A DNA stretch of 52,057 nt from Thermoproteota archaeon (lineage in GTDB: Archaea; Thermoproteota; Methanomethylicia; Methanomethylicales; Methanomethylicaceae), in NCBI GenBank assembly GCA_030055575.1, contig JASFYL010000003.1, forward strand, positions 1 through 52,057. The letters run 5' to 3'. The position numbers were made by a program, and so were the translations under genes. The notes under the pieces are model-generated. The model saw nothing but the letters and a program-made list of their open reading frames with translations. It had not been told where the DNA came from and did not search any database. Shown in pieces: positions 5,362 through 51,028 of the stretch. Position 1 is the first letter of the stretch; the number at the start of each line of letters is the position of its first letter.

Positions 5362-5701
5362 AGACCGATTTCCTTTCTTTTTTAAAGTTTCCGAAAGATA
5401 TAGAAGTCCACGGATCCGGCGCTTTGTTAATGTTTTTCAGAGTAGTCGAACATTGTAAAAGTAGATAATTCAAACAACCAGACCGGCAAAAAGTTTGCCA
5501 GATTCAACTTGTAGCAGATTAGGACCTCATCTCTATATAACGACCCTGATCACTAATCTGTTCATCTCTGCAGTCCTTGAAGAGCACCAGATACAACTTG
5601 AGGGACTCGATCTGACGCCGCCCTAACAAACGGGCACCGTTCCGAGTGCAAATTTAAATCAAAAAGCGTTTACCAAACATCTTTGACGCCTAAAGTTTCT
5701 T

Positions 5702-14630: not shown

Positions 14631-15335
14631 TCAACCACGTAGCGCATGTAATGACTTGACGAGTTCTTCGACAGTTTCCTTTTTTGATAGCACCATAGGG
14701 ATATTTTCAGCCTTTGCGAGCTCCACTGCAATTCTGTCCAGCCGCGTAACCCCGTGAAGGATGATCGCTGCAGGCTTCAGAGGCGTAACTCTCACCGCAA
14801 CCATTGGAGACCTCCCTGTGCTTGTCTTTGTGAAAATCAAAGCCCTTTCAGCAGTAGATCCCATAAGCTGGTAGAAGTCTGCGCCTGACATTGAGAGTAT
14901 CGCCCTTATGCTGTCGACCACAGTATATCCGAGTATCTTTTTATCCGAACAAGATGTGCATGTAAGGAACTCACCGTCTACCGCTTGAGAAACCTCGGAG
15001 AGAGAGAACGGAGAGGGGAACTCATACAGGTCGATTATAGCGTCTGAAGTCGTGCGCATGATGGAAGAAAACTGCCTTATCACCCTCCCCCCATGGAGGC
15101 TATCGATCGCTACAAGACCGACGACAAATTTCTTTATGAAGAGCGCGCCTGGCGACCTTCTTCTTCCGCCTTCATAATCGCTGATAACAGAGGGGGAGAT
15201 CCCCATCTTTTCGGAAATTTCTAGCTGTGTGATCCCAAAGATCTCCCTCCACCTACGCATGATCTCGCCAGGTTCGTTTGACAGAATGATCTCTCCGATT
15301 ATGCGTTTCATAAGGAGCTCCTTTGCTGCCTCCAA
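14631..15335 (-). CDS. XRE-family HTH transcriptional regulator with DRTGG-like C-terminal domain
   Basis: GEIILSNEPGEIMRRWREIFGITQ...SPSVISDYEGGRRRSPG; YQLMGSTAERALIFT...GRSPMVA. Confidence 0.88.
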   Translation of the reverse strand: MEAAKELLMKRIIGEIILSNEPGEIMRRWREIFGITQLEISEKMGISPSVISDYEGGRRRSPGALFIKKFVVGLVAIDSLHGGRVIRQFSSIMRTTSDAIIDLYEFPSPFSLSEVSQAVDGEFLTCTSCSDKKILGYTVVDSIRAILSMSGADFYQLMGSTAERALIFTKTSTGRSPMVAVRVTPLKPAAIILHGVTRLDRIAVELAKAENIPMVLSKKETVEELVKSLHALRG

Positions 15336-15426
15336 TCAGTACACCGCCGAAGCATTGTCTCTAGTAGTGAAAATCAATTTCTATAAAAAAGTATAAAGAG
15401 CTGCCTTTTTTCTTTATTCTCTCTAA

Positions 15427-15504
15427 GGGGCTGTAGGCTAGCTTGGTCTAGACTGTCAGGCTCGGGCCCTGGTGACCCCGGTTCAAATCCGGGCAGCCCC
15501 ACCA
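15427..15504 (+). tRNA. tRNA-Pro(CGG)
   Basis: GGGGCTG/CAGCCCC acceptor, TCAGG-CTCGGGC-CCTGG anticodon arm, GGTTCAAATCC, encoded CCA. Confidence 0.95.
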
Positions 15505-15922
15505 GCCTCTGGGCTTAAGGATCGCCTAGACAAGTAGCAATAGGCAGCAAAAGCCGTTACGATGCAGCACAGTTCTCCGGGAAAATCCAGTTGTGGAGAA
15601 ATAGTCAAAGGTCATGCACGCCCATTGATCAGCTTGAACTGAATTCCTCGAACCCTGATCTTGAGAGAATATGCGTGATGGGAAATGTTTGAAAAGTGCG
15701 AGCAGAGCAATCTTTGGAAAATATGAGAAGTGCAAATATGGCTATAAGCCTGACGGAAAAGAACAGTTGGGCTAATGTTAACAGAAGAGAATGCATTGGC
15801 TTGAGATCGAAAGGCATAAGCTTAAAGCAAACATAATTCAAATTCACAATGCTTCAAAACCACACAAAATGCAGTGACCAAAATATTTTACTGCTACATT
15901 AAACTAAATTTATATAAACATT

Positions 15923-15950
15923 TTTTCTTATAAAAAGAATTATGTTATAT
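15923..15950. other. Possible dif-like Xer recombination site (11-6-11)
   Basis: TTTTCTTATAA-AAAGAA-TTATGTTATAT. The right arm matches E. coli dif XerD arm TTATGTTAAAT at 10/11; the AT-rich context weakens the call. Confidence 0.3.
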
Positions 15951-16335
15951 AAAATTTTATAGAATAAAACAAAAATAATTCGATATGATTGTGTAGACTG
16001 AAAACATAGACATGTGCCATCTTTCCACCACCATGGTTTGCACAACACCAGTCTAGCGGCTTAACAAATGCGCCTAAGTGGTATGGGCTCTGAAGAGGAG
16101 AAATTAAAGCCGTAAAAGAAAGGAGCAATATTATAAACATATTACGTCCCAACTTGGCAATCTCATATGATTTGGTCAAAATGCTCTAGCTCACGTCGTT
16201 AATCCGCCGTGCTATTCTGTCCGTCTGGACGGCTCCATCTGTTTTGAAACAAAAATCACTCTATTTTAACAAAATTTAATATATTTACAACCCATCAATA
16301 CAAATAATAAACTAGTTATTACAAAAATTATAAAA

Positions 16336-33800: not shown

Positions 33801-33941
33801 TTGTGAGTTATATGTGATATATAATCACAATGGTGTGAGACATACTGAACCACTAAATAAACCTTAGTGATGGTAAGTCACTCACAACCAAAAACCTTAA
33901 AACATCAAAATTACAAAGAAGTACTGAGACGTGTTACAAAG

Positions 33942-34583
33942 GTGTCACGAGTGAGCTTCCAAGATAGAAGCGAGCGAGTTGTGGAAGAGTTTAAAGTCGA
34001 ACTCACGCTTCTAAGGAGAGACTTAGTTGAAAGGCTCAGACGGATAGAAGAGTACATTACGTTTCTGGAATCGGACATAGGCAGAATCAGGCTGGACCTT
34101 CAAAGGATAAGCGACAAAATAAGCGATTTGACCGTCAAAGAAATGCCAGCCACACCAAAAGTTGAGCCGTTTATGGCCAGACCGCAAGAGATCCCCAAGG
34201 TCGAAGTGGCACACCCATCCATCCCTGGCACGCCGCAACCAGTGGCGACAGAAGCCCCCAAACCGCAGGAAACGCTCCCGCAGCAGCTCCAAGTCCAAAA
34301 GAGTGCGGAAAGGAAAGATTTGCTCAACCAGACGGAGATAGCGATAATCAAGTACCTGATCGAGAATCCCGGGACTAAGAGCGCTACGCCCATAGCCACT
34401 GCCATAAACAAAGCCAGGGAACACGTCGCTAGGACTTTGAAGAAACTTTCAGATGAGAAGAAGATCATAAGGGACGAGACAACATGGCCCTACAGTTACA
34501 TAGTCCCTGATGAGATCAAGAAGCTTGTTTTTGAGAGCACGCAGAGCGCTACGCCGTCTACCGACAACATCACAACTCATTGA
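33942..34583 (+). CDS. Coiled-coil + Pro-rich linker + C-terminal winged-HTH protein
   Basis: Heptad-like N-terminus; LNQTEIAIIKYL...IATAINKAREHVARTLKKL...WPYSY wHTH. Start uncertain (33867-33942). Confidence 0.8.
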   Translation: MSRVSFQDRSERVVEEFKVELTLLRRDLVERLRRIEEYITFLESDIGRIRLDLQRISDKISDLTVKEMPATPKVEPFMARPQEIPKVEVAHPSIPGTPQPVATEAPKPQETLPQQLQVQKSAERKDLLNQTEIAIIKYLIENPGTKSATPIATAINKAREHVARTLKKLSDEKKIIRDETTWPYSYIVPDEIKKLVFESTQSATPSTDNITTH

Positions 34584-34983
34584 CCACCAGGTCGATCTGG
34601 TTGGCGGATACGTTTGAGACTAGGCGGTATTGCCAACAGGAACGGTTGCCTTTCCTCTCCAAGTACCCATTGGAATAAAGCCGGGTCAAGTAAGTCGATA
34701 TAGTGCTTGCCTTGATCGGCTCACGGTATCGTTCCTGATACAGCAAGGACAGATCCTTGCTGGTGAACCAGACCTTGTTGAGATCTGCCGTGATGATGCC
34801 CATCAACTTCTCTTTTGTGGTCTTCAGCACGGAGGACTTCTGTGGCGCTGGGGTGGACGGATCTTCGAATATTTGAAGGATCTGGAGAAGCTTTTCCTTT
34901 GACATTTGCCCACTCATGGCTACTGTGATTTGTTCGCCGTTCGTATCACAGATCTCTATCTTTATCTTCTTCACCCGGAACAC
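34570..34983 (-). CDS. Small protein with C-terminal winged-HTH
   Basis: WFTSKDL...YREPIKASTISTYLTRL...GYLERKG...WQYRL. Confidence 0.8.
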   Translation of the reverse strand: MFRVKKIKIEICDTNGEQITVAMSGQMSKEKLLQILQIFEDPSTPAPQKSSVLKTTKEKLMGIITADLNKVWFTSKDLSLLYQERYREPIKASTISTYLTRLYSNGYLERKGNRSCWQYRLVSNVSANQIDLVVNEL

Positions 34984-34999
34984 CCACAGCAGCGAAAAT

Positions 35000-36100
35000 A
35001 AGTTAACTTCTGCACAGGTATATGAGCGTATTGTAGTCTACATAGTGTTGTTAATTACGGCATTTTTTCATGATAATCATGGTAAAAAAAGCCAAAATTC
35101 CAGACTTTTCCAGTTATCTAGCTAAAATGGAGTGAATTACAGTGAATCACGCCAAAATAGATTACATTCACAATTCTCGAGTGGAAGTGAAGGGGTGAAT
35201 CGAAAGGTGTAACATTGTAGTGGCGGTGATGAAGCGTCACAGTGTGACAATGATAAAAAACCGGTTACAAACGCAAGATTTTTTGCGCCCTCACTCTGGA
35301 ATGAACTAATACAACATCACTATTCAGGGGCAAAAGGTTGACGAGCTAGATCTTTTGCTCCCAGAACCGTCTAATCTGATGATCTCTTTTCACCATCAAT
35401 TGACAAAAATCACCATCAACTTGCATTCTAATGATAGATAACTTTAAATATTAGAGTTTATGATGTCGCTGTGAGTCAAAAATAGACCACAAACCAATAG
35501 TTTATTTTATCTAAAATTGATGGTGGAGTGTAACTAATAAGTTACATAAATAAAGAGAATTTTGGGGGAAATCAGAGTCTGAAAACCCCCAATTCTTACA
35601 AAAATTATGTTACATAACAGTTACATAAATTAGAGTTAACAGCACCAAAAACAATGAACTAAAACGGCCCTAAAGAGCACGCAAGAAGATCCAGTAAAAA
35701 GCACTAGCCAGTTGTGGCTTAGAAAGGAGGGAAAGCAGCCCATTTGTAGTATGTTTGTAGTCAGACGGGGGTTTTGGCTGGAAAGTCCTTAGCTCATATG
35801 TAAAAATTTCCACTGGAACGGTTTTTTATATGACTGTTTAAAAAGCACAGGATTATGTTTAAATAACACAGCGTGCCCCAATAAGAGTTTCTTAGTTCCC
35901 TGGCACCCCTAAGTTTCGCCTGGAAGTGTATATCACTTAAGTGTTATTTTCTACCTTTAAAAGAAAGACAGTGTAAATGTTAATACATGGTCGTCTATAT
36001 AAAAGTGTTTCAGTCGAAAAATCTAGAAAGAAACCTCTTAAATTTACTTGTCTACCTCTTTTCCAGCCTATGAAGGTCATTGGACTCCAATCGAAAATCA
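35000..36100. other. Candidate archaeal replication origin (oriC)
   Basis: ~1.1 kb with no credible ORF. Contains TTTCCACTGGAAC (35807-35819, reverse complement of the ORB core GTTCCAGTGGAAA), an ORB-like motif with G-string (35174-35196), six TTCCAG/CTGGAA copies and an AT-rich core at ~35440-35640. Confidence 0.62.
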
Positions 36101-36149
36101 GGGGTCACCCTCTTATAATTCCGGGCTTTAGTATTATCCGGTCACCAAA

Positions 36150-36455
36150 ATGTCCCGGACCAACGCCTCTACAGAGACATTGCTGCTAATATCCCAATAC
36201 ATTCCCAATGAGTACCGAATTCTCTTGTTGAAGAACCTCCTAGAGGTTTATGGCTCGATATACAAAACATCGAAAATGACAAAGATTTCAAGAACTCAGC
36301 TTTACAGGTACTTGGCAACGGATAAGAAATGTTATCCTAATGACGAAGTAACAGCCAGGATCCTCCAGGCTTTGTTGGAGATTAAGCGGGCGTGGACGAA
36401 AGATCAGCTCAAACAACTTTCAAAGGAGTTCAGCGACGTCATTAACAAGATATAG
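36150..36455 (+). CDS. Small HTH protein
   Basis: YGSIYKTSKMTKISRTQLYRYL...YPNDE resembles an HTH; AT-rich coding sequence. Confidence 0.65.
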   Translation: MSRTNASTETLLLISQYIPNEYRILLLKNLLEVYGSIYKTSKMTKISRTQLYRYLATDKKCYPNDEVTARILQALLEIKRAWTKDQLKQLSKEFSDVINKI

Positions 36456-39938: not shown

Positions 39939-40034
39939 AGCGGGGTGGGGTAGCCAGGTTATCCCGCGGGGCTCATAAGCCCCGTCGGTTGAGAAACCCC
40001 GAGATCGGTGGTTCAAATCCACCCCCCGCTACCA
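39939..40034 (+). tRNA. Initiator tRNA-Met(CAU) with canonical 37/38 intron (39978-39995)
   Basis: A1-U72 pair, CGGGG/CCCCG anticodon stem, BHB central helix CTCA/TGAG, encoded CCA. Confidence 0.95.
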
Positions 40035-47972: not shown

Positions 47973-48727
47973 ATTCTTCGGTAATCTGTTTGATAAACGC
48001 ATGAGACGATAAATTTTCTTATGATCGCAGATATGGATCTGCATAACTTCTTGTTGAACAACCTCAGGCGCACTTGACTTCAGGCAAAGTGGAATAAGAA
48101 AAAAATTTGCAGCTGAATCTGTTTTAAACAAGATGTGAGGAAGAACTTTTGGAAAGCTATATGAGAAAAGTATGGTGCAGCATTCTGGAAATTATGGATA
48201 TGGTCGCGGTGAGCACATAGAGTCTAGTGTTTCTCTAAAGCAAGCAGAAATTATAATCCGTTACAAGGTATTTTTCTGGATGTTGGAAAGGGGGAGTCCA
48301 ATTGACCATCGTTAACGCGTGATAAGTCTAGCATTTCGCCTCAGTTGCTAGGTATATTTCAAATGTTTGAGAAGGTGTTGCATGGCGTAATGTTGTGTGT
48401 GGGGCTTTGATGTTATCTCAGAATTAGTCAAGTCGATCACACTTCAGGCACTCTGCCTAGCTGTTGCCAATTCTCCTGTATCTTCACCAGGCAGCGATCT
48501 GGATTTTTTGATTCTGGGGGGTTCAGACACACCAAATTCCTTCAAAATAGCGCCCTGCATGTTATGGACTCTTGATATAGTATGCTTAGACTTTAAAGTA
48601 TTTTGAAATGAATGCCCGTGCAGCTGCCCAAAAAACCTTATGAAAGCATGTCCTCTATAGATAAGTGTGTTTTGAATGGTATATATTTTTAAGTATAATC
48701 GTTTCTAAATTATTTGAGAAATTATGC

Positions 48728-49304
48728 TTGAAGGAGCATCCGTTAAAAAATTATTATGTCAACTTTCAAAAAAAAGAGCTACTTAAATTAGCAAAAAAGA
48801 AGAACCTTCGTGAAGTACCTGAAAATTGGAACAAAGAAAAAATAGTCGACGCTCTTTCACTGTTTGTTACAAAATCAGATCTCTTTGAGTTAACTTCCAA
48901 TGCACTTAAGTCTAAAACTTCTGAAGGAAGAGGATATGAATTAAGAGAAATTGGAGATAAGCTTGGAAAAAAAGGTTCTCTCACTACTAGAAAGTAAAGG
49001 CTACAAATGTGAAAAGAATGTACGGATACTTGGCTCGGAATTTGATATTGTTGGACATAAGAAAGGGGGGATACTTAGAAGTGATGAATGGATATTTGTT
49101 GAATGTAAAAATAAACCTAGAGTCGTCCCATCCGATTTCAAGAAATTCTTAGGAAATTTTGAGCTATTCTGTAAGAAAGAAAAACTTGAAAGGGAACGTG
49201 TTCAAGCAGTTTTCTATACGACTGGATTGTTCGATGTAATGGTCAAAAAACAGGCGAGTGAATTTGCCAATATAAAACTAAAGAGAATAAGTTTAAAATA
49301 TTAA
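48728..49304 (+). pseudogene. Mrr-like PD-(D/E)xK restriction endonuclease, probably split by a frameshift near 48965-48973
   Basis: Overlapping ORFs 48665-48997 and 48951-49304; removing one base gives IGDKLEKKVLSLLESKGY…EFDIVG…FVECK. Confidence 0.6.
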
Positions 49305-49380
49305 ACTTACATAATTCTTAATTGGACTTTAAGATGCCTCCAAAGTTCCTAAAGATGTAATAAAAAATTAAAATTCTGGT

Positions 49381-49681
49381 GGCGTGTTGGTCATAACCCA
49401 CCTTCTGTTTTAGGCGGCATTCGACTATGCAGGCTACCCGGGCCTCGTGTGGACCTCACAGGCCTCTATTTGCCCTTGCTCCCCGCGGATTGGCCGTTTC
49501 AACGTAACCGCCGGCATACTCAACGGCTTGATTGTAACCGCATCACTGACACCCGCCGGCGGGCGTGCCGTTTCTGATCCAAGAGCAGGGGTCTCCCCCT
49601 ATGCCTCGCGGCATCGCGGTTCCACATGGAGGGTGGAGTTTCCTCAGACCTTGCGGTCCGTGAGCCGCCCACCAACTCGCC
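49381..49681 (-). ncRNA. rnpB: RNase P RNA
   Basis: P4 halves GAGGAAACTCCACCC and AACAGAAGGTGGGTTAT; P1 GGCGAGTTGGT/ACCAACACGCC; TGAAACGG and GAGCAAG conserved regions; ~301 nt. Confidence 0.95.
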
Positions 49682-49750
49682 ATTATACACTAGACGATTA
49701 AAGATAAATTCTTTTATACGTACGAGAACCGTGCAAAAATAATTAAAATC

Positions 49751-49776
49751 TTAGTCTGACCAGCTGGTCAGACTAA
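49751..49776. repeat. Perfect 26-bp palindrome
   Basis: TTAGTCTGACCAGCTGGTCAGACTAA equals its own reverse complement. Confidence 0.95.
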
Positions 49777-50173
49777 TTTAGGATTTTTCTGCTTATCGAA
49801 CTACATTTTTTAACACCTTTAACTTTAAATTAAAAATCACTATTATGTACAATGTTAACGCTTTAAATTAAAAAATTGCTATTTAATTCATATAATATGA
49901 AAAATATGTATAACTTTTACTAAAAGTAAAAGTATAAATATTTGTTTAAATTCTAAAATAGATTAAGCTTGATTGCAGCTAATTTGATCTATACTGACAG
50001 ACTTGTTTGGGAGATCGTGATGAAGGAAGTATGCTCTTCAGGCATCTTGTTGATAACGATCGGATTTTTCTTATTCGAAAACCTCCTGCGTATTAGAAAA
50101 TCCGAAGGGCAGGGAAGATTCGTGAGAATTTACTATTAGTCAGAATGATGTAATAAATGGGTTTGTTTCCTGC

Positions 50174-51028
50174 TTGGAGCATAATGATTATTTACTTTCA
50201 TCAACTAACATTCGTCTGGTAAGAGAATATATGATGCTTCAAAAGACCAGAGATTATTTCAAGGATCTTGTTGCTGTATTAAATATTAACAAAAAGCTCT
50301 TTCTCATTATGACATTAAGGATCCCTATTCTGTTGTTTTATTTGGTCGGAGCTGACGTACTGGCAACTAAAATTGATAGTTATTTCCTTAGGCAACCCCT
50401 AAATAATACAACGATTTCTAATGGGACTTTAAAATTTACGTTGCGAGATGTAGAAAGTTTCGTTATTTTGAGAGAAAACACTGAAAAAATGTTCAACAGA
50501 TACTTGACCCCAAAAAAAGGGGATGTTTTTCTGGATGTAGGTGCGCATATAGGCAAGTATACGATCAAAATCGCAAAGATTGTGGGTTCTAAAGGTAAGG
50601 TAATCGCAATTGAGGCTGATCCTAATAACTTTGATTTACTAAAAAGAAATGTCGAGATCAACAAGCTTGAAAATGTAACACTCTTTAATATCGCTGCTTG
50701 GAACTCGGCATGTAAATTGACATTTTACAAAGGTGACAGCTCAGGTCACGGAACCGTTAAAGGTAATAGACAATTCGGGAAATTTGTTTTAGACGCCAGA
50801 CCTATAGATGCCCTTCTTAAAGGAGAAAAGGTTGATTGGGTTAAAATAGACGTTGAGGGAGCTGAATACGAGGTATTGAAGGGGGCTATCCAAACTATTA
50901 AAATTAGTAGACCAAAATTGATTGTAGAAGTTTTCCCACAAAATAGAGAAACTGTTTTTGGGTTTATGAAAGAATTAGACTATCGATGGGATGTAATTTC
51001 TGAATATAATTATTTCTTTTATAATTAA
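50174..51028 (+). CDS. FkbM-family SAM-dependent methyltransferase
   Basis: VFLDVGAHIG.Y, IAIEADP.NF, KIDVEGAEYEVLKG; AT-rich. Start uncertain. Confidence 0.92.
   Translation: MEHNDYLLSSTNIRLVREYMMLQKTRDYFKDLVAVLNINKKLFLIMTLRIPILLFYLVGADVLATKIDSYFLRQPLNNTTISNGTLKFTLRDVESFVILRENTEKMFNRYLTPKKGDVFLDVGAHIGKYTIKIAKIVGSKGKVIAIEADPNNFDLLKRNVEINKLENVTLFNIAAWNSACKLTFYKGDSSGHGTVKGNRQFGKFVLDARPIDALLKGEKVDWVKIDVEGAEYEVLKGAIQTIKISRPKLIVEVFPQNRETVFGFMKELDYRWDVISEYNYFFYN

Follow-up and report, generated by a model that had tools for sequence, protein, structure and literature searches.

A candidate chromosomal replication origin of the oriC1 type, distant from cdc6 genes, in Candidatus Methanosuratincola

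The stretch of DNA analyzed here, referred to as the window, is an entire contig of 52,057 nt (C35) from an assembly of 1.36 Mb in 97 contigs that is 88% complete, and its closest named relatives, found by a scan with the 101-residue protein encoded by orf101, belong to Candidatus Methanosuratincola. Between the divergently transcribed genes orf137 and orf101 lies a spacer of 1166 bp (34984-36149), with a G+C content of 37% as compared to 53% genome-wide, that is considered here as a candidate chromosomal replication origin (oriC). This spacer is the record internal stretch free of any open reading frame (ORF) of at least 75 amino acids, not only within the window, as already recognized in a first-pass annotation made from the sequence, but within the entire assembly. 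Two complete relatives allowed the locus to be viewed on the scale of the chromosome, M. verstraetei LCB70 (CP186953.1; 1,521,743 bp) with the homologous spacer at 796,103-797,178, and M. petrocarbonis LWZ-6 (CP130488.1; 1,538,194 bp) with the spacer at about 1,430 kb. The spacer and the elements found within it, among them several origin recognition boxes (ORBs), are the following:

34984-36149, no strand: whole intergenic region, oriC candidate, between the divergently transcribed orf137 and orf101
35177-35196, plus strand: ORB1, full ORB with G-string, TCGAGTGGAAGTGAAGGGGT; from the published-motif scan and conservation
35391 (plus), 35411 (plus) and 35517 (minus), spanning 35391-35525: CACCATCAA repeats, flanking the highly conserved block TAATGATAGATAACTTTAAATATTAG
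35415-35634, no strand: conserved core between ORB1 and the mini-ORB, AT-rich (73% A+T), containing GTTACATAA three times (35541, 35609, 35620)
35807-35819, minus strand: mini-ORB without G-string, TTTCCACTGGAAC as written forward, GTTCCAGTGGAAA in minus-strand reading
35905-35924, minus strand: ORB2, full ORB with G-string, TCCAGGCGAAACTTAGGGGT on the minus strand; left half of the class-wide inverted pair
35925-36085, no strand: likely duplex-unwinding and helicase-loading spacer, 161 bp, about 68% A+T, between the inverted ORB2 (minus) and ORB3 (plus)
35995-36020, plus strand: mid-spacer block CTATATAAAAG..TTTCAGTCGAAAA, conserved in four of four genus members
36086-36105, plus strand: ORB3, full ORB with G-string, TCCAATCGAAAATCAGGGGT; right half of the class-wide inverted pair
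36110-36119, plus strand: TATA-like element CTCTTATAAT, about 30 nt 5' of the orf101 ATG, kept as CTCTTATAA in relatives; from a consensus scan

Origin recognition boxes and their conservation

ORBs were sought with motifs fixed a priori, namely those published for Ori-Finder 2, including the common ORB motif TCCA[CG]T[TG]GAAA[TC][GA]AAGGGGT (PMC4164010), and the spacers of 15 genomes of the family were aligned. ORB1 deviates from the common motif at two positions and is the best match of the genome, no other site with three or fewer mismatches being found in the 1.36 Mb. It is nearly invariant, all 15 relatives having AGTGGAAGT[G/A]AAGGGGTGA and the distant genera TCCAGTGG, and it corresponds to the forward ORB-like motif with G-string, TTCTCGAGTGGAAGTGAAGGGGT at 35174-35196, that had been pointed out before. 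The ORB core on the minus strand, also noted at first pass, is the mini-ORB, the sequence GTTCCAGTGGAAA occurring a single time in the assembly; it is kept as TTTC[C/T]A[C/G]T[G/C/A]GA in 11 of the 15 relatives and missing in the most distant genera, which have shorter spacers. ORB2 and ORB3, both of them full ORBs with a G-string, had been missed. Each of them has four mismatches to the Sulfolobaceae ORB motif, and their patterns, ACCCC..TTTC..GGA for ORB2 and TCCA..GAA..GGGG[T/G]C for ORB3, are present in all 15 relatives. ORB1, ORB2 and ORB3 each consist of a dyad part, TCCA...GAA, and a GGGGT G-string, and three of the 12 distinct genomic matches to a loose ORB pattern, derived from these same sites, fall within this 1.17 kb.

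The hexamer TTCCAG/CTGGAA is found at the six positions listed previously (35108, 35296, 35778, 35813, 35920 and 36061) and in addition at 35098, which amounts to seven copies in 35000-36100, whereas its frequency in the genome as a whole would predict 0.75 (Poisson P = 1.3e-5); of the seven, only those at 35813 and 35920 lie inside elements that are conserved in relatives. When up to three mismatches are allowed, the 12-mer ORB core is found 57 times in the whole window, no more often than expected (56.8), and one perfect 11- to 12-mer is about what chance would provide in 2.7 Mb, counting both strands. Since a single perfect box is close to chance expectation, the case for the ORBs rests on their clustering, their conservation and independent signals on the genome scale.

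Conservation extends well beyond the genus. The gene order hypF, CBS/HTH (helix-turn-helix) gene, orf238, orf137, a spacer of 0.9-1.15 kb and orf101 is kept in all relatives of the family that were examined, and within the genus the spacer DNA is 67-78% identical, as compared to about 73% for aligned, mostly coding DNA genome-wide (own genome against M. verstraetei). Over 62 genomes of the class the pattern TCCANNNGAANNNNNGGGGT yielded 71 matches versus 11 for the reversed control, and the matches form pairs in minus/plus arrangement that are 129-191 bp apart, mostly 147-164 bp, often with a third ORB 0.5-0.9 kb from the inverted pair. Homologues of orf238, orf137 and orf101 flank the ORB cluster in most of these loci (families f1, f2-f4 and f6-f9). 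No orc1 gene is found in any of the 3-kb loci around the ORB clusters, that is, none within 1.5 kb; the single orc1 match among the class loci was discarded as a chance occurrence of the pattern inside a cdc6 gene. An origin of an integrated plasmid or virus was also considered and rejected, as the synteny is kept throughout the class.

Where would the duplex be opened? An AT-rich core between ORB-like sites of opposite orientation had been proposed, and such a core does exist between ORB1 and the mini-ORB (35415-35634). As unwinding element, the 161-bp spacer between ORB2 and ORB3 appears to be the better candidate, and the duplex-unwinding and MCM-loading zone most likely corresponds to 35925-36085 rather than to the larger core, because the geometry of ORB2 and ORB3 matches the arrangement of ORB2, unwinding element and ORB3 in Sulfolobus oriC1, where the two inverted ORBs around the unwinding element are both essential (PMC12141716). 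The element CTATATAAAAG (35995-36005) is centered 5 bp off the middle of this spacer and differs by two mismatches, by one in a relative of the genus, from the ucm 11-mer of Sulfolobus, derived from the probe ATTATACAAAAG (supplement of PMC12141716); in shuffled controls P ranged from 0.02 to 0.19, the element is not shared by other families, and a TATA box would be an alternative reading of it. Of the six genomic copies of GTTACATAA three are located in the larger core, and of the 21 copies of the 9-mer CACCATCAA three are found in the spacer.

A hairpin, TTGGGGG...CCCCCAA at 35563-35604, is also found within the AT-rich core; in M. verstraetei it is not conserved, and its Rfam matches are at chance level (E = 0.8-0.9). 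A non-coding RNA in the spacer was rejected, Rfam yielding no match even at E = 1. Elsewhere in the window the stretches 48000-51000 and 15300-16300 are of similarly low G+C content (32-38%) and devoid of ORB-like boxes, and the least stable 100-bp duplex segments of the window, 15880-15979 and 49863-49962, are found in these two stretches.

It could be imagined that the region serves mainly transcription control, the ORB-like boxes and repeats being operators of the divergent HTH genes at which Orc1 paralogues or winged-helix proteins regulate expression and no initiation takes place. ORB3 lies a few base pairs 5' of the TATA-like element CTCTTATAAT, the probable promoter of orf101, three genes for DNA-binding proteins flank the region, and Orc1-2 acts as transcription regulator in Sulfolobus (PMC9738581). 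However, a conserved spacer of 1.1 kb far exceeds the needs of a promoter in a 1.5-Mb genome, and transcription control leaves unexplained both the class-wide geometry of the inverted pair with its spacing of about 150-160 bp and the chromosome-wide switch of composition and gene orientation observed in two genomes and described below. We regard a mainly regulatory role without initiation as highly improbable.

Strand composition and gene orientation

For the analysis of whole chromosomes genes were called by a crude longest-ORF heuristic, 96% of the called genes showing a purine excess at first codon positions. In M. verstraetei the raw cumulative skews climb to about 800 kb and then drop over 720 kb. 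The cumulative G-C skew of non-coding sites has its maximum within the spacer, at 796,925, the A-T maxima are found at 797,619 for non-coding and 795,932 for third positions, and the G-C maxima of second and third positions at 793,725 and 807,671, the minima of the site classes all lying between 1.5 and 74 kb. The purine excess over third-codon and non-coding sites is maximal at 797,599 and minimal near 0 kb, which is the antipode. When a model with two switches is fitted to 10-kb bins, the best fit places them at 10 kb and 800 kb with arms that differ at P = 4e-20; the switch at 800 kb is abrupt (+311 and +58, then -382 and -502 in consecutive bins), as opposed to the antipodal one that is spread over about 10-50 kb. 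When corrected for gene orientation the curve reaches its maximum at a gene (795,059-795,691) that ends 412 bp before the spacer. The chance that extrema coincide with a site named beforehand in 1.52 Mb is of the order of 0.004, a rough estimate for two extrema and a tolerance of a few kilobases. For the own genome, 93 of the 97 contigs could be ordered on that of M. verstraetei, and both the purine-excess curve and the curve for non-coding sites peak at C35:36,467. The skew inflection that had been proposed as a check of the origin is thus seen at the spacer in both genomes.

Gene orientation provides a separate test, because it is independent of base composition. In a scan of the M. verstraetei chromosome every 10 kb, co-orientation of genes with replication is optimal for an origin at 790-810 kb (57.0-57.1% versus 43.7% for the antipode), and in the own genome the optimum is at C35:28.6-48.6 kb (57.4-57.7%). 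Directons in the co-oriented direction exceed the others in size (P = 0.007) and account for 14 of the 18 largest. Moreover, two minus-strand loci of M. verstraetei, the ribosomal-protein cluster with L2 at 577 kb and rpoB at 601 kb, are co-directional with a fork leaving 796 kb. ORB array, skew inflection and divergence of gene orientation together support the proposal of a replication origin at this locus.

Several observations weigh against this proposal. The polarity of the skew is opposite to that of bacteria; with an origin at the spacer, G and A are scarce at neutral sites of the leading strand. In M. verstraetei the single rRNA operon (808.5-813.3 kb, minus strand) would be head-on to a fork leaving 796 kb. 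The cumulative curve of gene-strand bias in this genome has its minimum at 686 kb, 110 kb to the left of the spacer, and is then flat up to 800 kb. In M. petrocarbonis, of which the skew analysis covers the first 1.2 Mb, the sign changes at about 620-660 kb, the expected antipode of its spacer at 1,430 kb, so that the evidence from this genome consists of the antipodal switch alone; furthermore, the two complete genomes are syntenic and not fully independent of each other. Concerning the polarity, third-position skew and gene strand bias show a mean correlation of -0.17 +/- 0.61 over 601 archaeal chromosomes, that is, no fixed polarity, and in Haloferax volcanii, the origins of which are mapped, the polarity of the third-position skew is reversed (PMC12999951).

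With the bacterial polarity the site would have to be read as the replication terminus or a zone of fork fusion, the origin lying near the antipode (about 0-50 kb in M. verstraetei) and the ORB-like boxes being used otherwise. Bacterial termini coincide with the maximum of the cumulative G-C skew, and such a maximum is indeed found at this site, the neighboring rRNA operon would be co-directional, and the genes closest to ribosomal-protein genes in codon usage would be co-oriented at 64%, albeit in a test that is confounded by the skew itself. Only 44% of all genes would be co-oriented, though, as compared to 57% with an origin at the spacer, gene orientation diverges at the locus, and the gene clusters for ribosomal proteins and RNA polymerase, on the minus strand at 577 kb and 601 kb, would meet the fork head-on. 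The antipode of M. verstraetei contains neither an ORB cluster nor an origin-like or long conserved AT-rich spacer, a terminus does not need a conserved ORB array of 1.1 kb, and a de novo search for a dif-like 11-6-11 inverted repeat conserved at the locus among the own genome, M. verstraetei and M. petrocarbonis found none. In addition, composition switches are sharp at origins and broad at archaeal termini (PMC2958812), and here the switch is abrupt at the locus and broad at the antipode, opposite to what would be expected for a terminus. On balance a terminus at this site is quite improbable. The test based on codon usage, a codon-adaptation index applied to the co-orientation of highly expressed genes, was discarded, as the reference genes share their strand-composition environment and the index picks one skew class.

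In M. verstraetei and in the own genome G and A vary in parallel in the neutral-site skew (purine/pyrimidine type), and the correlation with gene strand bias is -0.34 for the cumulative third-position G-C skew and +0.88 for first positions. Position 1 of the deposited M. verstraetei record lies in ORF-covered sequence, about 1-10 kb from the antipodal skew minimum; this record may have been rotated according to the bacterial-type GC-skew rule, by which the terminus region would be mislabelled as origin. The 16S-23S rRNA operon of this genome (808,560-813,316) is situated 11-16 kb from the origin candidate and transcribed towards it, and the gene for RNase P RNA (window 49382-49680, minus strand) sits between the two, the contig end at 52,057 corresponding approximately to the operon start in M. 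verstraetei. Besides this archaeal RNase P RNA the window encodes a tRNA (39939-40034, plus strand, 96 nt; 51.7 bits with the Rfam tRNA model) to which ARAGORN assigned a four-letter anticodon (cata) and which presumably contains an intron.

The region could also be bound by Orc1 and yet be dormant, accessory or one of several origins, the others being of a sequence type that escapes recognition. The relatives encode a second Cdc6 paralogue, many archaea of the phylum use two to four origins (PMC4010727), and the skew curve corrected for orientation has a dip at 500-600 kb. This dip amounts to about 7% of the amplitude and is centered on the ribosomal-protein operons, the skew has a simple two-arm shape, its switches near 800 kb and near 10 kb being almost opposite, and genome-wide motif scans revealed no other ORB cluster, all of which makes a subordinate role of the site improbable. 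Neither the dip nor the vicinity of the antipode contains an ORB cluster, and a second origin was rejected for both places. The best ORB-like match near the antipode, at 5,431 in M. verstraetei, lies in G+C-rich, ORF-covered sequence without a long spacer. An AT-rich spacer of 980 bp in the same genome (49.3-50.3 kb) was dismissed as origin as well; inspected by eye, it contains a possible small gene and, at 50,190-50,290, a sequence (CTGAGA...ACCCTTTGAACCTGA...GGGA) which we take to be similar to a thiamine pyrophosphate (TPP) riboswitch.

Initiator proteins and relation to known origins

Which protein would act at this origin? The Cdc6_C profile has one match in the assembly, on another contig (C10:15139-16341), in agreement with the earlier remark that no Cdc6 ORF is encoded in the window. 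The product of this gene aligns to Sulfolobus Orc1-1 (2QBY_A) with E = 1.8e-130 and to Aeropyrum ORC1 (2V1U_A) with E = 3e-127, two proteins the structures of which were solved bound to ORB DNA, and the DNA-contacting wing GRYGRTK is conserved, strong sequence evidence that C10:15139-16341 encodes an Orc1-1 orthologue. This gene, in the region C10:13681-16965, is convergent with a gene for a calcineurin-like phosphoesterase, the product of which we take, by eye, to resemble the small subunit of DNA polymerase D, with one ORF of 191 amino acids in between. All ten relatives searched encode another Cdc6 paralogue, most similar to Cdc6 of Pyrobaculum (1FNN), which was not found in the own, 88% complete assembly. 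In M. verstraetei the cdc6 genes are located at 986 and 1,060 kb, 190 and 264 kb from the spacer, and the same spacing is found in M. petrocarbonis. The location of the cdc6 genes had been suggested as another check, and beside neither of them is there an origin-like spacer or any spacer above about 150 bp; nor does the skew of M. verstraetei switch at these genes. As the ORB loci throughout the class lack orc1 and Orc1-1 is encoded elsewhere, the sequence data support the first of two early suppositions, an origin served in trans or by another factor, with Orc1-1 as the candidate initiator.

Altogether, the spacer 34984-36149 is very probably, with a probability of roughly 0.8, the chromosomal replication origin of Ca. 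Methanosuratincola, of the ancestral oriC1 type and probably the only or the dominant one. The direct observations behind this assignment are the ORB array, its conservation and geometry across the class, the presence of Orc1-1, the switch in strand composition and the divergence of gene orientation. Briefly, monomers of the Orc1-1 orthologue, the gene of which is about 190 kb away in the complete relatives, would bind the three ORBs and the mini-ORB in trans, and the inverted pair of ORB2 and ORB3 would direct loading of the MCM helicase onto the 161-bp AT-rich spacer 35925-36085. Replication would then run bidirectionally from the origin in vivo and end roughly at the antipode.

The traits of an oriC1-type origin found here are at least two ORBs, inverted ORBs around an AT-rich spacer, an encoded Orc1-1 and a switch of composition and gene orientation. 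Adjacency to orc1/cdc6, which is usual albeit not universal, is missing. Such adjacency is not defining, because in Aeropyrum pernix neither cdc6 gene adjoins the origins (PMC5333045), and an origin unlinked to cdc6 is thus not unprecedented. Like A. pernix oriC1, the origin proposed here is of the ORB type, with an Orc1-1 orthologue (2V1U; E = 3e-127) and unlinked cdc6 genes; unlike A. pernix it belongs to a different class, in which both the lack of linkage and the three flanking genes are conserved. With Sulfolobus/Saccharolobus oriC1 it shares three ORBs with dyad and GGGGT, two of them inverted around a short AT-rich spacer and the third distal, as well as a close Orc1-1 orthologue (E = 1.8e-130 to 2QBY_A). 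The conserved mid-spacer motif of the genus may resemble ucm, which is bound by UBP in Sulfolobus, a resemblance that is not statistically secure. In contrast to Sulfolobus oriC1, orc1-1 is about 190 kb away and not adjacent, and the region is larger (1.1 kb) and contains the additional conserved repeats GTTACATAA and CACCATCAA. The Pyrococcus abyssi oriC is likewise composed of ORBs and mini-ORBs (core TTCCAGTGGAAA), is a single origin and combines a sharp switch at the origin with a broad terminus, but is located beside cdc6. The skew polarity of Pyrococcus is bacterial-like and that of the present genome reversed. Sulfolobus oriC3, finally, is similar in that the neighboring gene encodes a winged-helix protein and not Orc1/Cdc6. 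This protein, WhiP, is a tandem winged-helix, Cdt1-like initiator, whereas single generic winged helix-turn-helix (wHTH) or HTH proteins are encoded here, and the ORBs at the present site are of the canonical Orc1-1 type.

Flanking genes and significance

The three genes conserved next to the ORB cluster all encode small proteins with predicted DNA-binding domains:

33867-34583, plus strand: orf238, coiled coil and C-terminal winged helix; convergent with orf137
34570-34983, minus strand: orf137, small winged-helix protein; directly adjoins the origin
36150-36455, plus strand: orf101, small HTH protein; adjoins the origin on the ORB3 side, weak HTH_7 match

The structural model of orf137 consists of a small beta unit and a winged helix (predicted local distance difference test score, pLDDT, of 71), and the folds that match it are those of generic wHTH repressors (MecI, ArsR/SmtB, RosR), so that the fold was uninformative as a clue to an initiator role. 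For orf238 weak matches to HTH_24, Lrs14/Sta1 and ParB-like proteins were obtained. Its distant homologues comprise 164-171 amino acids, start with MLNEKEILEELR and align only from about residue 63, suggesting that the ORF of 238 amino acids is probably too long and the true start located further downstream. The orf101 proteins are 86-87% identical within the genus. No neighbor has the tandem winged-helix architecture of WhiP, orf137 containing a single wHTH, orf238 one winged helix and orf101 one HTH, and domain and fold searches, which did not include a direct comparison with the WhiP sequence, detected no similarity of the three proteins to WhiP/Cdt1.

According to Dhanaraju et al. (2025), the gene for UBP, ubp, is confined to Desulfurococcales and Sulfolobales, and the authors raise the question of whether proteins with an analogous role act at the origins of other lineages (PMC12141716). 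It is tempting, albeit rather doubtful, to see in orf238, orf137 and orf101 dedicated origin factors analogous to UBP or WhiP that have replaced orc1 as the gene linked to the origin. Candidate binding sites of the flanking proteins may be the repeats GTTACATAA and CACCATCAA and the mid-spacer block of CTATATAAAAG and TTTCAGTCGAAAA. If true, these genes would answer the question of Dhanaraju et al. for lineages without ubp, and in any case the conserved winged-helix genes can be tested as candidates for accessory proteins of the origin.

Cultures of the Methanomethylicia (Verstraetearchaeota), a group of methanogens that does not belong to the Euryarchaeota, have become available only recently, and in the literature we found no paper naming an origin in this lineage. 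An origin defined by sequence offers a target for marker-frequency, chromatin immunoprecipitation (ChIP) and footprint experiments, a candidate autonomously replicating sequence for shuttle vectors, and a proper zero point for genome coordinates. As an origin, the locus would also illustrate cleanly how skew polarity at neutral sites can be reversed in an archaeon whose skew follows a two-arm pattern. Moreover, with it a whole class would join Aeropyrum as a case in which origin and initiator gene are unlinked, weakening the 'next to cdc6' rule used in origin finders.

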